Under the pieces are notes generated by a model. The model made no database searches. It was not told the DNA's origin and saw only the letters and a list, made by a program, of their open reading frames with translations. The position numbers were made by a program, and so were the translations under genes. A stretch of DNA of 64,000 nucleotides from a virus (taxonomy: Duplodnaviria > Caudoviricetes). Positions 2,876 through 62,705 of this stretch are shown in pieces (position 1 is the stretch's first letter; each line of letters opens with the position of its first letter). The DNA lies in IMG/VR virus record IMGVR_UViG_3300025723_000032, positions 3,368 to 67,367 of that record. The stretch is one strand, 5' to 3'.

Positions 2876-5062
2876 ATGACAACAACCGCAATAAATAACG
2901 CCGTGCAAGATGCTATGGCCGGATTACCGGCGGGCACAAGCGATTTTATTAACGCTAATATCGGCACGCCCCAAGGCCAACAGGCTATTTTGCAAGCGGC
3001 CGCATCGATTGGAATTACAGACCCCGCGCAAATTGCAAGCATTGTTAGCACCGCAACGGGGATGAATATCACACCCCAACAGGTGCAAGCGGTGGCGCAA
3101 CCGGCACCCACAAGACGAATTACAACCGGCGCATCACAAAGCACGCCATCAACAACAGGATCGGGGGCCACGCCAACCGATTTGGGCACATCACTTTCTA
3201 GCATGGCCGCACCGCAATTTGTGGGATCGGCCGCACCGGGCGCGGTTGGCACAAGCTATGGCCAAGCATCGGGCAATATGATTAGTGCGGCGCAACAAGC
3301 CAATCCGGAATTATCACAAGCATTGATAAGCGGAAATGCGGCGGTTAATTACAACGCGGATACCGGCACATATAACTTAATCAACAAGACAACGGGCGCA
3401 CCAATCGCCGGAAATTATCAAGTGCAAGTAGGGCCAAACGGCACCGGAATCAACATTCCTAGCGGGAATGGGATGATTCAAGTCACCGCACAAACCGATC
3501 AAAGTGGCACGATTGCGCCGGTTACCGCCGCCAATGTGCAAAACGTTGGCTTGAATGCGGGTGCTGGCGGATTTGCCGGTGGCACGGGCGCATTAACATC
3601 GGCCGCGGTGCCCGCTTTAGCGATTGCATTCCCCGCTTTAGTGCCCTATATCGCCGCTTATAACGCCGCCGATGCGGCAAGCAAAGGCCAATATGGTGCG
3701 GCATTGATTAGTGCGGCCGTGTCTTACGCGGGATTTAATCCCGATTCGCCTTTGGTGCAATCCGTTAAAAGTGGCTTGGGAATCAATCCCAATGCGCCCG
3801 CGGATAATCCTACATCATCAACCGATGTGCCAAGCACACCAAGTGATGGAACAACGTTATCAAATGTTGCACCAACAACGCCAACTAATACAACACCAAC
3901 AACACCAACGGGCGGTGCATCATTAGGCAATTTGGCAAACGCCCAACAATTGCCGGGATCGGTTTTAAATCCAAACTTTATCAACACGCCCCAACCGGGC
4001 GATTTAACAAATCTTTCATCGTTGGGCACCGGCACGGCATCCGTGCCAACAACCCCAACGCCCGTGCCATTTACAAATATGGTTGGTGTTTCGCCCACAT
4101 CAACATCGGTGACATCAACCGCACCAATAACACCGAATGCCACAAGCCCAATTGTTAATTCCACGGGTTTGCCAAGTGGCACGCCGGTTAATACAACAAC
4201 CAATTTAACACCATCAACATCGATTGTGCCCGCGGCCGCCGCCGCCGCCGCACCCGCCGCCGCGCCCGCCGCATCAAGTGTTGCACCCGCCGCGGCCGCC
4301 GCCGCAACGGGTTTAACCGCCGCACAAATTGCCGCTTTGGCCGCCGCCGGTGTTAGCCTAGTTAATTCAAATACATTAACAAACGCAAACAATAGTGCGG
4401 CCGCCACACAAGCCGCCGCAGGCCAAAACGCACAAAATTTGATTCAAGGGCTATATACCCAACAAGGCCAATTGCAATCGCCCTATCAACAGGCGGGTGT
4501 GAATGCTTTAAACACGTTAGGATCGCTTGGATCGGGCACCTATAACGTTATGTCACCCACGGGCGGTGTCACGGGCACGGGCACCGGATCGGGCTATCTA
4601 ACCAACCAATTTAACAACCAAGATTTAACCGCACAATTAGCACCGAATTATCAATTCCAATTACAACAAGGATTGGGCCAATCGCAAAACGCGGCCAATG
4701 TTGGCGGTGGGTTATTAAGCGGAAATACTTTACAAGGGCTTAACACATACGCACAGAATTACGCACAAGGCGCGTATCAAAATGCGTTTACTAATTACCA
4801 AACCCAACGCAACAATATCTATAACACATTGGCGGGCCAAGCCGGATTAGGCCAAAACGCTAACGCACAATTAAGTAGCCTAGGCGGTGGATTGGCGCAA
4901 ACGTATGGAAATGTCACCACGGGATTGGCGGCAAGTGCGGCGGGCCAACAAGTTGCCAACGCACAAAACCAAACCAATTTGTTAAGCAATTTGACGAATG
5001 CCGCGGTAACCGCATTTGCGCCAACACCGGCAACAACCACATTGAAACTTACAGCCGCATAA
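2876..5062 (+). CDS. DNA ejection protein, gp7-like, with long N-terminal extension
   Basis: C-terminal PNYQFQLQQG...GGLLSGNTLQGL motif of gp7-like ejection proteins; Ala/Gly/Thr-rich; homologue at 38483. Confidence 0.65.
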   Translation: MTTTAINNAVQDAMAGLPAGTSDFINANIGTPQGQQAILQAAASIGITDPAQIASIVSTATGMNITPQQVQAVAQPAPTRRITTGASQSTPSTTGSGATPTDLGTSLSSMAAPQFVGSAAPGAVGTSYGQASGNMISAAQQANPELSQALISGNAAVNYNADTGTYNLINKTTGAPIAGNYQVQVGPNGTGINIPSGNGMIQVTAQTDQSGTIAPVTAANVQNVGLNAGAGGFAGGTGALTSAAVPALAIAFPALVPYIAAYNAADAASKGQYGAALISAAVSYAGFNPDSPLVQSVKSGLGINPNAPADNPTSSTDVPSTPSDGTTLSNVAPTTPTNTTPTTPTGGASLGNLANAQQLPGSVLNPNFINTPQPGDLTNLSSLGTGTASVPTTPTPVPFTNMVGVSPTSTSVTSTAPITPNATSPIVNSTGLPSGTPVNTTTNLTPSTSIVPAAAAAAAPAAAPAASSVAPAAAAAATGLTAAQIAALAAAGVSLVNSNTLTNANNSAAATQAAAGQNAQNLIQGLYTQQGQLQSPYQQAGVNALNTLGSLGSGTYNVMSPTGGVTGTGTGSGYLTNQFNNQDLTAQLAPNYQFQLQQGLGQSQNAANVGGGLLSGNTLQGLNTYAQNYAQGAYQNAFTNYQTQRNNIYNTLAGQAGLGQNANAQLSSLGGGLAQTYGNVTTGLAASAAGQQVANAQNQTNLLSNLTNAAVTAFAPTPATTTLKLTAA

Positions 5063-14794: not shown

Positions 14795-14894
14795 AACCTT
14801 ACGTTTTTCGGTTTGCGTTAAAAAGAAAACATCGGCAGGACGGTAACGAATCGTCTTTTCGGGAGCTACCCTAGCCGCGTTTCAAATCATTATA
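14795..14894 (-). ncRNA. Structured leader upstream of the initiator gene
   Basis: Extended -10 TGaTATAAT (14889-14897), then CGGCtAGG/CCTGCCG outer stem with GGG/CCC and GACG/CGTC inner stems and a T-rich tail. Confidence 0.45.
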
Positions 14895-34172: not shown

Positions 34173-34670
34173 ATGAAAACGCCAACACTTTTTCCTACGC
34201 AAGAAGAATTAAAGTCAAAATTTGATTATATTGACGGCAAACTTGTATGGAAAATTAAAACAAAAAGGGCCAATGTTGGCGATTTAGCTGGAACATTGCA
34301 TCCTAATGGTTATATGAGAACTGGATTAAATGGCCATTGTCATTTGAATCACAGATTAATTTTTATGTGGCATTATGGTTTTTTTCCTGAAATAGTTGAC
34401 CACATTGATGGAAACAAATTAAACAATTCAATAGAAAATTTACGACCAGCAACACAAATTCAAAATCAACAAAATCAAAAAATACGCAAAGAAAACACAT
34501 CAGGCTATAAAAATGTTTCTTTGTGCCCACAAACAAAAAAATGGAAAGTTTCCATAAAATTAAATGGCAAAGATATAAGATTTGGTCGTTTTGACGATAT
34601 TGAATTGGCAGATTTAGTAGCTCAAGAGGCTAGGGCTAAATATCATGGCGAATACGCAAGGAATCATTAA
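34173..34670 (+). CDS. Free-standing HNH homing endonuclease with AP2-like C-terminus
   Basis: HRLIF...VDHIDGNKLNNSIENLR motif; NTSGYKNV...WKVSI...GRF DNA-binding tail; AT-rich. Confidence 0.9.
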   Translation: MKTPTLFPTQEELKSKFDYIDGKLVWKIKTKRANVGDLAGTLHPNGYMRTGLNGHCHLNHRLIFMWHYGFFPEIVDHIDGNKLNNSIENLRPATQIQNQQNQKIRKENTSGYKNVSLCPQTKKWKVSIKLNGKDIRFGRFDDIELADLVAQEARAKYHGEYARNH

Positions 34671-35645
34671 ATGGCCACTACCCCGATAGATATAATAACC
34701 TCATCATTAAAAGACATTGGCGCATTGGCTGCTGGAGAAACTCCTACGCCTGAAGCTGCTCAAGATGCGTTCGTAATGATGCAACGCATGATTGACCAAT
34801 GGTCTAACGAGCAGATGATGGTGTTCTATAAGACAGAAATCATTTACACACTCACCCCAGGTCAAACCCAGTACACAATTGGCCCTGGCGGTGAGATCGG
34901 TGCAACCTTTACAGGATCAATCACCAACAACATTCTCACAGTCACAGCCATCACCCAGGGCGCTATTAGCCTAGGAATGACCCTATCAGGCACAGGTGTC
35001 ACAGCTGGGACTAAGATCACAGGATTCTTAACAGGCGCAGGCGGTAACGTTAACGAGTTGGGCACATATCAGCTCAACCTATCGCAAAACGTGGCTTCAA
35101 CAACGATTAACGCCTTTTATCAGCGCCCCCTCAGCATCAATTCGGCATTTGTACGCATCAACACCTCACAAAGTGGCGTACCCATCCTAAACGGCGGTCT
35201 AGACTATCCCGTGGCCATTTTGAACGTAGAAGACTATGAAATGATTGGTCTTAAAACGTTAAACGGACCTTGGCCAAAAGCACTCTACTATCAACCAACC
35301 GAGACACTAGGAAACATCTTTGTCTGGCCAAACCCAGCACAGGGTGAAATGCACATTTTTGCCGACACATTATTCAGCAAGTACACCACAATCAACGACA
35401 CAATGCTACTGCCAGAAGGCTTTGAGAGCTGTCTAGAATGGTGTTTAGCTGAACGTTTAATGCCCCAGTATGGCAAAGCATCAGCCACGCAAATATCAAT
35501 GATTAACGCTTTTGCAGCGCAGGGCAAAAGCACGATCAAGCGCACAAACATGAAGCCTGTTCAGTCGGCTAGGTATTCTGATGCTTTGTTGATGAGCAGG
35601 GCAAAAGATGCCGGCTGGATCTTGTCCGGCGGCTTTTTTAGGTAA
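34671..35645 (+). CDS. Head-tail adaptor, P22 gp4-like, with inserted beta module
   Basis: N-terminus [22 protein letters not shown]...MIDQWS; position before gp10. Confidence 0.75.
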
Positions 35646-35646
35646 A

Positions 35647-36279
35647 ATGTTTTACATTTATCAACACCACAAAGCAGACACCAACGATATTTTTTACGTT
35701 GGGAAGGGTAAGGACAAGCGTCTGAACTCTAAAAGAGGTCGCAATCAATATTGGCACAATGTTGTTGATAAGCATGGATTTGTTGCAAAGGTAATTGCAG
35801 ACAATCTTGACGAAGAATTAGCATTTTTGTGTGAGATGGAGGCCATTGATCTTTACAAAAGAATCGGCATCCAACTTGTAAACGCAACAAATGGTGGTGA
35901 AGGTGCTTCAGGTTACAAACATACTGATGAGCATCGTGAAAAAATGAAGAATAATCTGTATTGGAGTTTTGCTAAAGAAAATGGTTTTAAAGGCAAAACC
36001 CATTCAGAAGAACAAAGAGAAAAGTGGAAAGAAACTCGCAAAGGCACACCTAGCCCAAGAAAAGGTGTAACTTTATCTAACGAAACAAAGCAAAAAATAA
36101 GTCAAGCTAGAACAGGAATGATTGTTAAAGCTAGACGAGTTTTGACTGACGAACAAGTTAAACAAATTAGAATTGAGCTTAAAACTGAAAGAATGGCAGT
36201 TCTTGCTAGAAAATACAATGTTGGCGAGACAACCATTAGCAGAATTCGAAATAACGAACGTTATCAGGATGTCACATAA
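35647..36279 (+). CDS. Free-standing GIY-YIG-type homing endonuclease with NUMOD3-like repeats and HTH
   Basis: FYIYQH...FYVGKG, E...[10 protein letters not shown]; [12 protein letters not shown] and [14 protein letters not shown] repeats; absent at the A locus (663-673). Confidence 0.8.
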
Positions 36280-48099: not shown

Positions 48100-48196
48100 T
48101 AGAGAGTTCCTCTATCACCGCCCATGATGCAATTAAGATCAACAATAGGGCAAATAAACCTAGAAAAAGCATAAGAATAATCAACAAAGTATTCAT
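48089..48196 (-). CDS. Small single-TM protein (35 aa)
   Basis: Homologue of 13415-13522. Confidence 0.6.
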   Translation of the reverse strand: MNTLLIILMLFLGLFALLLILIASWAVIEELSNDS

Positions 48197-48612
48197 TCTG
48201 TTTCCCTAAAAAGCACCTCAACATGGGGATCACCATATTTCTTGGTTACAAACAAATTGACAATCTGGCAATCATTCTCAAATATGACCTTGTCGCAACC
48301 ATCAAGCACCGCTTTAACCACATTGTCGATATCGGGCTTCTTGGTATGCCTTTCAGACCCATTTAAACAGGCTTCCTTGCGTTTTTTAGAGTAGGACAAT
48401 GGTATGGCAAAGGATATGTAAATAAACGCATCTAAGGCCGTTTTAAGCGGTTCTGAAGACCCCATTGATTTCTGTGCTGCTTGTCGAACAGTATCCTCAT
48501 AAGCAACAGTCTTTGCATCGGTATAAGTGCTGACAAAAGCCCCACGCCTGGCAAACCTTGGTCGGCCTTTACCACGGGGTTGGCCATCAACTTTAAATGT
48601 CACATGAAACAT
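48193..48612 (-). CDS. rusA: RusA-like Holliday junction resolvase
   Basis: KKPDIDNVVKAVLDGC...NDCQIV motif. Confidence 0.9.
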   Translation of the reverse strand: MFHVTFKVDGQPRGKGRPRFARRGAFVSTYTDAKTVAYEDTVRQAAQKSMGSSEPLKTALDAFIYISFAIPLSYSKKRKEACLNGSERHTKKPDIDNVVKAVLDGCDKVIFENDCQIVNLFVTKKYGDPHVEVLFRETE

Positions 48613-48760
48613 TGAGTTCCTTTATTCTTTGGGCTACTGCTTTGCCTAAACCTTTGAACATGGGGTGCTTTTCCATTTCCCTGACCTGGTGTCTAACGTA
48701 ATCAATCCATCCAGGCTTAAGTGCTAAGTTTGCATAATGCTCTACAAAATCTACCATCAT
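48593..48760 (-). CDS. Small conserved protein (55 aa)
   Basis: MMVDFVEHYANLALKPGWIDYVRHQV; homologue of 13913-14089. Confidence 0.65.
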   Translation of the reverse strand: MMVDFVEHYANLALKPGWIDYVRHQVREMEKHPMFKGLGKAVAQRIKELNVSCDI

Positions 48761-49160
48761 TCTCTTTCAGACATAGTTATGCCTAGGGTGGTTAGTACCA
48801 CTCTCTCTCCAATTCAATCTCATCTGCTTACGTCTGCTTATATCTTAAAAGTAGAAATCAAATCCAAGCTCGCTTGACGGGTTTATTCACCTTATACAAC
48901 TGGCCTAGTTTCCACCTGAGTTACCAATTGCTTTACCGATACCTAAACCAAGTTCGGTCACGTTTTGCTCTGGGGTGTGTCAGAGTGCGGTGTTTAACTC
49001 CAAGCGGTCCATTCAAACCCTCTGCTATCGTGTGGAGAACGATTCCAGCGAGACAATAAAAAAAGCCACTTAACGATGTAACTTGGTCGTGTCCCCCGTG
49101 GTGGGGGCAAGGTACATCATTAAATGGCCTGATCTATTGCACACGACTGCAATAACCTAA
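48761..49160 (-). ncRNA. ORF-less structured region replacing the replication initiator gene
   Basis: No credible minus-strand ORF found; promoter at 49161-49188; hairpins and T7 terminator at 49058-49156. Confidence 0.5.
49058..49122 (-). terminator. Long hairpin with U-tract (attenuator-like terminator)
   Basis: GGCCATTTAATGATGTA pairs with TACATCGTTAAGTGGCT, followed by a T run. Confidence 0.6.
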
Positions 49161-49188
49161 ATTATACACATTTGTAAACGTCAGTCAA
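49161..49188 (-). promoter_or_regulatory. Sigma70 promoter at the end of the cro-like gene
   Basis: TTGACT-16-TATAAT on the minus strand. Confidence 0.7.
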
Positions 49189-49336
49189 CAAACCATTCAG
49201 GCTTTAAGACTTTTAATTGCCAAATCCTTGCTTGGGGTACTGTTTTCCATTGGCTAATGGCTGATTGATTAATCCCGAGGATACGCCCAAGCTCAACTTG
49301 TGAGCCAGCCAATTTGATAAATTTATTTTTGTCCAT
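49181..49336 (-). CDS. Cro-like HTH regulator (51 aa, not in ORF track)
   Basis: AGSQVELGRILGINQSAISQW..VPQARIWQL. Confidence 0.85.
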   Translation of the reverse strand: MDKNKFIKLAGSQVELGRILGINQSAISQWKTVPQARIWQLKVLKPEWFVD

Positions 49337-49393
49337 GTGTGCATTATAAGCCACATAATAACCTACTGAACTATAAGGTCAATTATTTATTTG

Positions 49394-55122: not shown

Positions 55123-55265
55123 TGCCACTCATTAAATCCACTAAAAAAGAAGCATTTAAAAAGAATATTGCAACAGAGGTCAAGGCTGGCAAACCAGTCA
55201 AGCAGGCCGTGGCCATTGCATACTCTGAGAAACGTGAAGCAGCCAAAGCCAAAAAGAAAAAATGA
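55122..55265 (+). CDS. Small basic protein (47 aa)
   Basis: Homologue of 21665-21811. Confidence 0.7.
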
Positions 55266-56149
55266 TCCATCCGTTAAAAAGTTTGGTTACGATGGGGGCA
55301 GTTGGTATGCCAGGTGCAGACCAGCCCGCTCAAGATGGAAACAATCCATTCATTAAAAACCAAGCTCAAGCAGCACTTTTTGCCAGGTTATCCCAAGAAT
55401 TCCCAAACTTAATCAAAGAATATTCAAGCCTACCCGATACTGAAGGTGGGAAAATATTAAATACTGATATTGCTAGGGAATTAAGCCCAGAATACCGAGA
55501 AGACAGGACTAGGGCTGCTGAAGTACACGAACCCGCCAGTACATTTACCAAAAGCCTTTATTCGCACAAGTTGGCGCAACCAACACCAGAAGGACAAGAT
55601 TCAAGGGTTTTGTTTACAGCTGGAGGAGCTGGTGCTGGTAAATCAACTGCCCTAGAAAACGTAAAAGCATTAAACAGTAAAGCCAAAAAATCAGAAATTA
55701 TTTATGATACAAACATGGACAAACTGGATAGCGCAGAACAAAAGATAAAACAAGCGCTAGATGCTAAACGCAAGGCCATGATCATGTACACCTACAGAGA
55801 ACCCGTAGAAGCATTGGTTAATGGCGCACTTAAGCGAGCTAATAGCATGGAAAAGAAGTATGGATCAGGCCGAACAGTCCCATTATCAACACATTTGAAA
55901 ACACATTTAGGGGCTAGAGAAACGATCCAAGCATTGCACGAAAAGTACAAAGACCATCCAGACGTAGAAATAAGAGCAATTGACAATTCACGCGGATTGG
56001 GAAAAGCCAGACAGATAGCGATTGAAAAACTGCCAAAATTAAACCCTGAACAATTAAGGAGAGAATTACATGATGCCCTCGAACAAGAATACGCCGATGG
56101 AAAAATATCCCACGCCATCTACAAATCAACCAAAGACTACTCCATCTGA
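55262..56149 (+). CDS. Zeta-toxin-like P-loop kinase (unit B only; start uncertain)
   Basis: [12 protein letters not shown] Walker A, IIYDTN strand, ILNTDIARE and R...GRTVP segments typical of the zeta/AAA_33 kinase fold. Confidence 0.7.
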
Positions 56150-60962: not shown

Positions 60963-62705
60963 ATGAGTAATAATCTCTTAACGATATCCAAGATCACCAA
61001 CGAGGCGTTGATGGTTTTGGAAAACGAGTAAACAGTTTGCTCCCTTATGCGGTAACGCATATTGAATAACTTTCTCTGATTGACTTGGAACTCTGGCAGC
61101 AGACAACAAGGGGCAAGCGAAAGCAGCCTGAACGACTAAGTGAGAAAGCTCCTAGAAATAGGATGATGCGATAGTCTGAACTACCCTATAACAAAAGAAG
61201 GGGTAGAGGAGAATCCGAAGAGGTTTTCCCGCCTAGAAATAGGTCACTAAAGTAACAGAATGTAACTTTTACAAGTGAAGTTGACAGAAACTATGACGAT
61301 CAATTCGCCGTTGTCGGTGCAAAGATCGGTAACACAGTTAACGTTCGCAGACCAGGCCGTTTCATCGGTACTACTGGCCCAGCATTGAACGTTGAGGACT
61401 TTAACGAGTCTAGCGTACCCGTGACTTTGTCAACCCAGTTCCATGTGGATAAACGTATGTCCACATATCAAGACGCTTCCTTTCTAATAGCGGCTTGATT
61501 GGCAAAATTCTTCCTGATTGACTTGGAAGCCCTGCGGAGGGCGACAGGGGGCAAGCAAGAGAAATCTGTGCAGCCTGAACGACTAAGTGGAAGAACCTAG
61601 AAATAGGATGCGATAGTCTGAACTTTGGTATAACCTAAAAGAAGCCAGAGAGTTTGATCCGAAGCGGTCGAACCGCCCGAAAGGGTCAGTAAGCGAAAGC
61701 TGAAGTAACAGAATGACACAATTCACAACTCAGGACTTGGCATTGTCTTTGGATATGTTCTCTGACCGCGTGTTGAAACCCGCTGTGGCAGCAATTGCTA
61801 ACAAAATTGATCGTGATGGCTTGGTGATGGCCAAGAACAACACGGCCAATATCGTTGGTACAGCTGGTACACCTCCCACAGGTTTGATCACATATTTGAC
61901 CGCTGCTGCTTACCTTGACGCTGAAGGCGCACCAAGGGATGGCCGCCGTTCATGTATCGTTGAACCTTTCACAAGCGCCACAATCGTTGATTCTTTGAAG
62001 GGTCTATTTGTACCCCAAGAAGCCATCGGCGAACAGTATCGCAAGGGTTTGATGGGTCGTGACTCTGCTGGTATGAACTGGAAGATGGATCAGAACGTTG
62101 TTTCACAAACATTCGGTTCTTATTCGACTGCCGTGTTGTCATGCAATACATCGACTGCAACTGGATTCCTGACCTCTGGTTGGGCATCAACTTCTACTAT
62201 CGCTTTGTCTGCCACAACAGCCACAGCATCGTTGAACGTTGGTGACGTTATCCAAATTGCTAACGTGTACGCTGTCAACCCCCAGAATCGCCAGGCTTAT
62301 GGTTCTAACAAGCTACGCAACTTTGTCGTGACTGCTGCCGCTACTGTGGCAACATCAGGTACAACTAGCGTGACTGTTAGCCCTGCCGTGATTACTGCTG
62401 GTCAGTTCCAGAACGTGTCTGTGACCAATGCTGGCGCATCAACTGTTACGCCTTTCAACAATACTGGTACTGTGTCACCACAGAATATCATTATGCACCG
62501 CAATGCGTTTACATTGGCAGTGGCCGATCTTGAGTTGCCAGAGGGTGTCCACTTTGCTGGTCGCGCTTCTGACAAAGAGATTGGTTTGTCCATGCGCGTG
62601 GTTCGCCAGTACACCATTAACAATGACAGTATTCCAACCCGTTTGGATGTCTTGTACGGCTGGGCACCGCTCTATCCTGAACTCGCTTGCCGTGTTGCAG
62701 CTTAA
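60963..62705 (+). CDS. Major capsid protein split by two introns: join(60963-61029, 61263-61450, 61716-62705)
   Basis: Exons of 67+188+990 nt give 414 codons plus stop, colinear with the unit-A coat (ENE-L-TFT and HVD-TQF junctions). Confidence 0.92.
61030..61262 (+). ncRNA. Group I intron 1 (Twort/IA2-like, ORF-less, 233 nt)
   Basis: 5' exon ends in U, intron ends in G; P3 TTTCTC/GAGAAA, P7 GACTA (61134)/TAGTC (61172), P8 CCTA-GAAA-TAGG; ends GTAACAGAATG. Confidence 0.9.
61451..61715 (+). ncRNA. Group I intron 2 (Twort/IA2-like, ORF-less, 265 nt)
   Basis: P1: exon ATGTGGAT pairs with intron GTCCACAT with U.G at the splice site; P3 TTCTTCC/GGAAGAA; P7 GACTA (61581)/TAGTC (61614); terminal G. 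Confidence 0.92.

Follow-up and report, generated by a model that had tools for sequence, protein, structure and literature searches.

The slot between the cro-like gene and the RusA operon

The stretch of DNA analysed here (the window) comprises 64,000 nucleotides (nt), namely bases 3368-67367 of the 67,367-base IMG/VR record IMGVR_UViG_3300025723_000032 (G000), which comes from a tailed virus of the Caudoviricetes. It consists of two tandem units of about 34.7 kb, A and B, which share 73-94% mutual identity. The subject of this analysis is a slot in the early operons of the two units, which in unit A is occupied by the gene of a replication initiator and in unit B by 420 nt without a gene on the minus strand, located between a cro-like gene and a small open reading frame (ORF) of 55 amino acids (aa).

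In unit B, the slot is preceded by the cro-like helix-turn-helix gene (49181..49354, minus strand; 57 aa, or 51 aa from an internal ATG; Pfam P22_Cro, E 2.6e-9), for which the promoter scan detected a promoter-like site of its own at 49382-49355 (minus strand). Downstream of the slot follows the 55-aa ORF (48593..48760, minus strand), which is conserved in units A and B and matches no known family, and then the gene for a RusA Holliday-junction resolvase (48193..48612, minus strand; Pfam RusA, E 1e-30). The operon continues on the same strand with a 35-aa peptide, a 108-aa ORF, a Zn-ribbon protein and a DUF968/HNH protein. The corresponding operon of unit A, also on the minus strand, starts with the cro-like gene (15053-14895), which is followed by a leader of about 100 nt, the gene for a 236-aa DUF1376 protein (14792-14082), a 58-aa ORF and the RusA gene. 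The 236-aa protein combines a DUF1376 domain (E 5e-20) with an O-like C-terminal part, and its gene contains internal repeats of 11 nt (5.5 copies) and 7 nt (4.7 copies). An initial annotation of the window had described this arrangement as a leader plus a DUF1376 initiator with iterons in unit A and about 400 nt without a gene in unit B, placed between the same flanking genes, and we confirmed its coordinates and gene order. The gap in B offers only tiny sense ORFs of 18 and 5 codons, those listed in the initial annotation having 10-18 codons, and each of its sense frames is interrupted by 9-11 stop codons. Neither a tRNA nor a tmRNA was detected in the region.

The nearest relatives of unit B, as judged by RusA proteins of 94-98% identity, carry a 242-aa DUF1376 initiator in the slot, and their homology with B restarts at about position 48769, which represents the very end of the cassette described below. 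Because the homology resumes there, the slot holds either a full initiator or the RNA. In agreement with the initial annotation, we found no recognisable initiator, helicase, loader, primase or polymerase in the B cycle by searching with Pfam, PHROGs, NCBIfam, a custom hidden Markov model (HMM) and tblastn. In B, the domain scans covered the ORFs of the early region together with the ten largest among the late ones, and a few small ORFs as well as two ORFs from the virion region (509 and 632 aa) gave no match, so this absence is to be read as "none recognisable". The iterons of unit A are not present in B. The GC skew, which had been proposed as a further check, tracks only the direction of transcription and gives no origin signal.

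The leader in front of the initiator gene of unit A (14815-14881, minus strand) matches the Rfam family int-alpA (RF02996) with 43.8 bits, compared to a gathering score of 35.8. The match represents a three-way junction with a U-tail between the cro-like and initiator genes, and the int-alpA element of unit A therefore precedes a replication gene instead of int or alpA. Despite this match, the fold of the leader is not significant thermodynamically (z -0.33), which rules it out as a thermodynamic terminator. The same model did not match anywhere in unit B. Both units thus carry a structured RNA with a U-run close to the promoter, ahead of the replication gene or of the slot for it.

A conserved RNA cassette

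The 420-nt gap of unit B is one copy of a self-contained RNA cassette of about 400 nt, which is encoded on the minus strand and belongs to no family of Rfam 15. All members of this family show the same order of elements, starting with a promoter, two hairpins (H1 and H2) connected by a pseudoknot and ending in a U-run, a short variable spacer and a structured core, followed by a linker, another hairpin, the motif CCCU(A/U)GG, a Shine-Dalgarno (SD) sequence and an AUG codon. The central element of the copy in the window is a conserved 185-nt core (48859..49045, minus strand) with helices P1-P6, including P3 (CUCUG/CAGAG), the P4 hairpin (GACC...GGUAAAG) and a P5 helix of 9 bp with an invariant GGUGG loop. 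Comparing the gap by blastn with loci fetched through their RusA genes revealed 76-95% identity in six contigs, and a core of 135 nt was still found at 70-83% identity in phages whose RusA proteins are only about 50% identical. Among the latter phages, the mean column identity of the core amounts to 72%, and the insertions and deletions in the gap do not occur in multiples of three.

Covariation was analysed, as had been suggested, with a set of 45 non-redundant sequences and a structure that had been checked by hand and comprises 7 helices with 36 pairs. Pairing was maintained in 96.8% of the cells compared to 75.9% in shuffled alignments, and compensatory changes were observed at 25 of the 36 pairs, with covariation also in the CTCTG/CAGAG stem already noticed in the initial annotation, which corresponds to P3. 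The covariation score of 0.516 contrasts with 0.149 after shuffling (reached in 0 of 500 shuffles) and with values of at most 0.10 in slid controls. An independent analysis with RNAalifold yielded compensation at 19 of 28 pairs. Helix P1 occurs in two covarying forms, UCCA/UGGA and GGG/CCC, and the numerous G-U pairs of the core exist on the minus strand only.

A covariance model of the core (R1) gave a single match in the window, which is located in unit B and extends over all 184 model positions (186.9 bits, E 1e-56), and found no copy in unit A. By searching with a degenerate 17-base pattern of the core, we obtained at least 117 stretches from IMG/VR, nearly all with the same flanks. In a collection of 185,579 cellular genomes, 2 of 49 pattern matches were real, both on contigs of metagenome-assembled genomes (MAGs), and the other 47 were due to chance. 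The two MAG contigs are labelled Comamonadaceae and Gammaproteobacteria, and the host assignment rests on these two; a search with model R1 in genomes of one family revealed the RNA in 1 of 151. Rfam 15 did not contain a matching family for the gap of B, also when the whole window was scanned, or for seven relatives. The best matches between 48500 and 49500 were miRNA and snoRNA models with 17-26 bits, compared to cut-offs of 46-113, and RF02932 (Betaproteobacteria-1) was not matched in the whole-window scan. The window copy contains the R1 core, the 5' pseudoknotted hairpin with its U-run and the 3' series of hairpin, CCACCCU(A/U)GG, SD and AUG, by which we define the proposed family. The notion of an uncharacterised structured-RNA module has therefore stood up well, given the at least 117 stretches, the strong covariation and the lack of an Rfam match. 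Large catalogues of unnamed phage RNA candidates exist (PMC10690425). The family described here is large and well supported, comprising about 400 nt, a pseudoknot, 6-7 helices and more than 100 contigs, and has no Rfam entry. Its position, the gap between cro and the replication genes, is among the most intensively studied in phage genomes.

The arrangement of unit B recurs with 94-95% identity in contigs from three other samples (L003, L082 and L101). Together with the window, these represent a lineage lacking any RepC-like or DUF1376 gene (see below), and the differences observed within it are compensatory in H1/H2, in the apical stem and in P2. Five further loci (L022, L023, L029, L042 and L043) contain the same promoter and a 5' domain of the second type described below, followed by a different noncoding region of about 130-330 nt ("core-2") and the same small protein. 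Core-2 shares only a TTGGTT..GGTAARG hairpin with the core studied here and probably represents a sister RNA family.

The strong promoter predicted in the initial annotation is a sigma-70-type sequence (TTGACT-16-TATAAT; 49161..49188, minus strand) with 11 of 12 matching bases, whose -35 element overlaps the stop codon of the cro-like gene. Promoter-like sites are no more frequent in the region than expected by chance. We regard this one as credible because its -10 element is kept at a constant distance from H1 in relatives with differing upstream genes, and not because of the scan count. In some relatives, operator-like palindromes are present at the cassette promoters.

The transcript would start with hairpin H1 (49134..49155, minus strand), as predicted by folding, whose loop L1 (GUCGUGU, 49147-49141) pairs with the 3' bulge of the long hairpin H2 (ACACGAC, 49092-49086) to form a pseudoknot. 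H2 and its U-run extend over 49056..49130 (minus strand), the stem occupying 49130-49063 and the U7 run 49062-49056. This is the terminator-like hairpin of the initial annotation, and it turned out to be very stable (-44.4 kcal/mol, z -7.2), with none of 200 shuffled sequences reaching equal stability. Its stem of at least 21 bp with GGC at the base and the adjoining U7 run qualify it as a predicted intrinsic terminator, and the previously noted CAAG/CTTG stem (CUUG/CAAG) forms part of it. A simple terminator scanner had missed H2, the inner part of which is larger than the loop limit of the scanner. The G-U pairs of H2 are possible on the minus strand only, and on the plus strand they turn into C-A mismatches and the A/T run precedes the hairpin rather than following it, leaving no terminator. 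Both the apical and the main stem of H2 show compensatory changes, and a U-run is present 3' of the hairpin in 45 of 45 non-redundant relatives despite the variable hairpin sequence.

The complementarity between L1 and the bulge, located 26-30 nt from the U-run, is upheld in the relatives by at least 13 (13-17) different complementary segments of 7-9 nt, and matching the loops with the bulges of other sequences gave only 4 cross-matches in 582 comparisons. A second type of 5' domain contains a loop-loop contact in place of the loop-bulge pairing. As a pair that is hypervariable yet always complementary, the loop and the bulge offer a handle for mutational tests. Fourteen bases of the 5' strand of H2 (49129-49116, minus strand) are also perfectly complementary to positions 34663-34676 (plus strand), at the stop/start junction of an HNH-like ORF and a 324-aa ORF (E 0.01). 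We considered this site as a trans target in unit B for an RNA of about 100 nt ending at the U-run and discarded it, the AT-rich 14-nt match being probably due to chance.

Behind the core follows a U-rich to AT-rich linker (48811..48858, minus strand), which contains the direct repeat reported in the initial annotation, TAAGCAGA, in two copies at 48840-48833 and 48830-48823 with a period of 10 nt. The linkers of the relatives have lengths of 20-70 nt, are first U-rich and then AT-rich (69%) and frequently contain direct repeats that recur every 9-11 nt. In 19 of 45 relatives the copies are spaced by exactly 10 nt, compared to 2.3 expected. The repeat unit itself is lineage-specific, the versions observed being TAAGCAGA, TTAAGAT, AGTCAATA, GGAGCAT and GATTGAAAC.

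The cassette ends with a putative translation platform (48772..48810, minus strand), consisting of a GGAG sequence, a hairpin with the arms GUGGU/ACCAC (48801-48788), the motif CCCUAGG and an AUG codon (48774-48772). The distal pairs and arms of the hairpin covary, and GGUGG/CCACC is fixed. In 49 of 73 relatives with a recognisable platform, its AUG is where the downstream gene actually begins, and elsewhere a stub of 3-12 codons starts from it and overlaps the start codon that follows. Because the conserved SD and AUG provide a real start codon in most relatives, the cassette is at least an mRNA leader. In unit B, the AUG opens a stub of five codons (MSERE; 48774-48757, minus strand), whose stop codon TGA overlaps the ATG of the 55-aa ORF (ATGA). 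The 18-codon upstream ORF (48823-48767, minus strand) was rejected as a conserved leader peptide that would define the family, since its start is present in only 30 of 86 relatives. We also considered reading the 3' hairpin arm as a DnaA box (TATCCACC compared to TTATCCACA), which by eye agrees at 7-8 of 9 positions in many relatives and at only 6 of 9 in B and is too weak to be used.

Directly downstream of the cassette, at least 72 of 123 loci contain a gene for a RepC-like protein of about 120 aa. In about ten more loci this gene lies 1-1.6 kb further down the operon, and in 27 loci (about 22%) it is missing. The protein is characterised by the motifs FERFWKAWP and IPAPLVYLNQQRWDG and by a DPALAKIE..PMP tail. 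It matches the C-terminal parts (positions 174-252 of 276-288) of PHROG families annotated as "replication initiation protein" or "primosomal protein", and its tail matches those of the DUF1376 proteins of unit A and of six other loci (L002, L005, L006, L009, L012 and L080). It lacks an N-terminal DNA-binding domain, matches neither a Pfam nor an NCBIfam family and has no relative with a solved structure, and the custom HMM derived for this protein found only unit A in the window. Because nearly identical RepC-like proteins occur behind two different cores, they do not read the core. The association of the cassette with an initiator-effector-like protein is strong, not obligatory. Right behind the cassette or the RepC-like gene, a gene for a TET-associated glycosyltransferase (Pfam TAGT, E 6e-47) was observed at positions 2978-3850 of locus L010 and at the equivalent positions of L044 and L052, which hints at DNA hypermodification genes in this phage group.

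Two other arrangements are found among the relatives. In phages of the L087/L147/L168 type, the operon consists of cro, the cassette, a stub of ten codons and a 35-aa membrane peptide, followed by a convergent late operon. In phages of the L019/L021/L090 type, which code for a DnaB-like helicase, the cassette is located far from cro and right before a DUF968/HNH gene. Because it is present in phages encoding such a helicase, and at another genome position, the cassette is not simply a protein-free substitute. The initial annotation had proposed an RNA-primed, protein-free origin or an ncRNA replication module that is interchangeable with a lambda-O-like module. The exchange with DUF1376/O-like initiators in the slot holds, whereas the protein-free character does not apply to the family as a whole, which also stands beside a DnaB-like helicase and is mostly linked to RepC-like genes. 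Across the sequenced loci, the "protein-free" state of B appears to be a derived minority condition (about 22% of the loci).

Possible roles of the cassette

The reading we favour, if tentatively, is that the cassette acts as a cis-acting control leader of the replication or early-right operon. Most transcripts would end at the pseudoknotted hairpin and its U-run, giving a free RNA of about 100 nt, and a regulated fraction would pass the U-run and fold the 185-nt core. The platform of hairpin, SD and AUG would then start translation of whichever gene follows, and the gate as a whole would set the dose or timing of the transcription and translation that reach the replication and early genes. 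That termination is partial and regulated and that the core acts in cis is inferred, as is any account of how B replicates. The B lineage would have lost the usual RepC-like cargo gene, leaving the 5-codon stub fused to the 55-aa ORF via the ATGA overlap; B keeps the control RNA and no recognisable initiator. The character of a leader is supported by the AUG serving as a real start codon and by the operator-like palindromes in some relatives. If the RNA indeed gates the expression of replication genes, it would represent a new kind of phage attenuator.

Several observations weigh against such a control leader. It assigns no specific job to the 185-nt core, and the stronger conservation of the core compared to the neighbouring proteins suggests contact with a conserved host machine. 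To have the terminator upstream of the core would be unusual for a riboswitch and for an antiterminator of the put type. The linker repeats look more like phased protein-binding sites on DNA than like RNA features. In the phages of the L087/L147/L168 type, the RepC-like gene belongs to another early operon than the cassette. Finally, because cargo-less loci exist (about 22%) and the B lineage shows compensatory changes, the RNA is selected whatever follows it.

An RNA-primed or R-loop origin is possible and rather unlikely in our view. The transcript would fold, stay hybridised in the AT-rich linker and prime or open the origin there, and the RepC-like effector without a DNA-binding domain would recruit the host helicase, with host factors alone taking over in B. 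By analogy to ColE1 and the R-loop origins of T4, the RNA would substitute for the origin-recognition half of an initiator and be interchangeable with DUF1376/O-type initiators in a tailed phage, which we likewise consider doubtful. Such an origin would fit the replacement of an initiator gene with internal iterons by the cassette, so that the origin of B must lie elsewhere, and the strong association with a replication protein that lacks an N-terminal DNA-binding domain. It would also agree with cassettes standing next to cro and apart from the RepC-like gene, with the AT-rich (69%) linker and its 10-nt-period repeats just downstream of the core, and with the conserved structure in lineages without a RepC-like gene. 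However, it accounts neither for an SD/AUG platform conserved as part of the element nor for a strong terminator ahead of the core, and the cassette occurs elsewhere in the genome, before an HNH gene, in phages with a DnaB-like helicase. The near-identity of the RepC-like proteins behind two cores, which shows that the core is not read by them, and a GC skew following transcription only also speak against it. If the RNA did supply the function of an origin, this would make it the first origin module that is defined by an RNA and exchangeable with O-type initiators.

We also give a small chance to a stable RNA acting in trans, where the terminated RNA of about 100 nt, the core or both would act on a host machine or on transcripts and the link to the downstream gene would be incidental. 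RNA polymerase, Rho and the ribosome are candidate targets, and anti-defence or immunity could be among the roles. A strong terminator behind a promoter is what a small RNA gene looks like, the conservation of the core exceeds that of the flanking proteins (72% identity compared to about 50% for RusA), the cargo is variable or minimal, and the single-stranded segments that are conserved are rich in C. The loop and the bulge are hypervariable yet always complementary, as are the specificity determinants of P4 CI/seqA-seqC or of plasmid control RNAs. Yet both complementary partners are contained in one molecule, and the pairing thus takes place in cis; the core sits behind the terminator, no convincing target was found in B, the best match being the 14 nt at an AT-rich junction, and an action in trans explains neither the translation platform nor the bias towards replication genes.

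It is improbable that unit B is replication-defective and depends on the initiator of a co-resident phage such as A, or that it replicates by recombination via Erf and YqaJ, the RNA being irrelevant to replication. The lack of a recognisable initiator in B, the presence of A and B on one 67-kb record and the retention of Erf and YqaJ would be compatible with this. Dependence on A as a helper, an alternative raised in the initial annotation, lost ground by the absence of the A iterons from B. That contigs from three other samples show the B-type arrangement at 94-95% identity speaks for a viable lineage, and A and B may be two strains that were joined during assembly. Only a minute probability remains for the 420 nt being the wreck of a DUF1376 or RepC-like gene, the other alternative raised at the outset. 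Searching with four DUF1376 proteins and the RepC-like protein by tblastn gave a best E value of 0.14 in the gap, and the 9-11 stops per frame, the 76-95% conservation in other contigs with compensatory base-pair changes and the indels that do not come in threes refute a pseudogene. The stub MSERE resembles the starts of RepC-like proteins (MSKE.., MPEL..), and it is plausible solely that a RepC-like gene was lost downstream of the cassette.

Compared to known systems, the cassette appears most like the structured leaders that gate replication genes, such as the P4 CI RNA and the leaders of IncB, IncI and R1 plasmids, and it also resembles int-alpA. The P4 CI RNA and the P1 c4 leader are structured leaders behind an early promoter, which cause premature termination and contain short complementary segments that vary between relatives. 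The cassette shares the structured leader behind an early promoter and the variable short complementary segments, but the latter are located in one hairpin domain and pair in cis. The C4 RNA is processed, has about 77 nt and contains loops complementary to sites near the downstream ribosome-binding site (RBS). The Rfam C4 family gave no match at E values up to 10, and the phages carrying the cassette differ by showing no sign of lysogeny (no integrase in the ORF scans of the window, and 2 MAG contigs from the collection of 185,579 genomes). The rep genes of IncB, IncI-alpha and IncFII (R1) plasmids possess long structured leaders with an RBS hairpin. Likenesses to these are the RBS hairpin, a possible long-range pairing between the GGUGG loop and CCACC, which is invariant and thus outside the reach of covariation, and the stop/start overlap of a leader peptide in some members. 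The cassette differs by lacking an antisense control RNA and by containing the leader peptide in only 30 of 86 members.

In ColE1 (RNA II/RNA I) and in oriF and oriG of T4, a promoter-driven transcript has to fold upstream of an AT-rich stretch, and the host replisome is used. The cassette likewise provides a promoter-driven transcript at a replication module with a fold ahead of an AT-rich stretch. In contrast to ColE1, it has no antisense gene of the RNA I type (scanning the gap for promoters yielded none on the plus strand), its transcript ends in a conserved SD/AUG, and we can point to no site for RNase H or Pol I. The int-alpA element (RF02996) is also a promoter-proximal multi-hairpin phage RNA ending in a U-run and occupies the same slot in unit A, but with about 70 nt and one three-way junction it lacks the pseudoknot, the 185-nt core and the translation platform. 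The put RNA of phage HK022, a protein-independent cis-acting RNA in a lambdoid early operon, comprises about 70 nt in two stem-loops and acts on terminators downstream, with putR located about 270 nt downstream of the PR start (PMC9378689). In comparison, the core of the cassette forms 6-7 helices over 185 nt and follows the sole terminator-like hairpin, and the genes of the B operon overlap without internal gaps able to hold terminators. The cassette shares its slot with the initiators of the lambda O and DUF1376 (YdaU-type) groups, and its RepC-like partner contains their C-terminal part, whereas the slot of B holds an RNA without an iteron array of the A type. The slot is therefore exchangeable and can be filled by a protein initiator and its iterons, by an initiator preceded by a short known RNA (int-alpA, unit A) or by a long RNA, which may or may not be accompanied by a truncated initiator-like protein.

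Further features of the two units

Units A and B represent related yet distinct phage genomes in head-to-tail orientation with a period of about 34.0-35.6 kb, and the tandem could be a genuine dimer or else a chimera in which two co-occurring strains were joined during assembly. Both are podovirus-like, as illustrated by genes for terminase, portal, scaffold, tail-fibre and ejection proteins, and their early regions contain genes for Erf, a YqaJ exonuclease and RusA. Neither an integrase nor a cI-type repressor was found among the ORFs of the window that were scanned. Just upstream of the small terminase gene, unit B codes for a 295-aa protein (55262-56149, plus strand) carrying a zeta-toxin-like P-loop kinase domain (Pfam Zeta_toxin, E 1e-11), and unit A has no ORF of at least 100 aa at the matching position.

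The major capsid gene of unit B is apparently split into three pieces (60963-62702, plus strand), compared to the 414-aa protein of unit A. The pieces correspond to aa 1-27 (60963-61043), aa 23-95 (61262-61483, in another frame) and aa 86-414 (61716-62702) and are separated by about 218 and 232 nt. A weak match to group I introns at 61020-61199 (27.7 bits) is below the cut-off, and the interruptions are possibly two small introns. Two ORFs similar to homing endonucleases are located among the tail and virion genes of B (34173-34670 and 35608-36279, plus strand), one of which appears HNH/AP2-like by eye, and the other matches phrog_314 (homing endonuclease).

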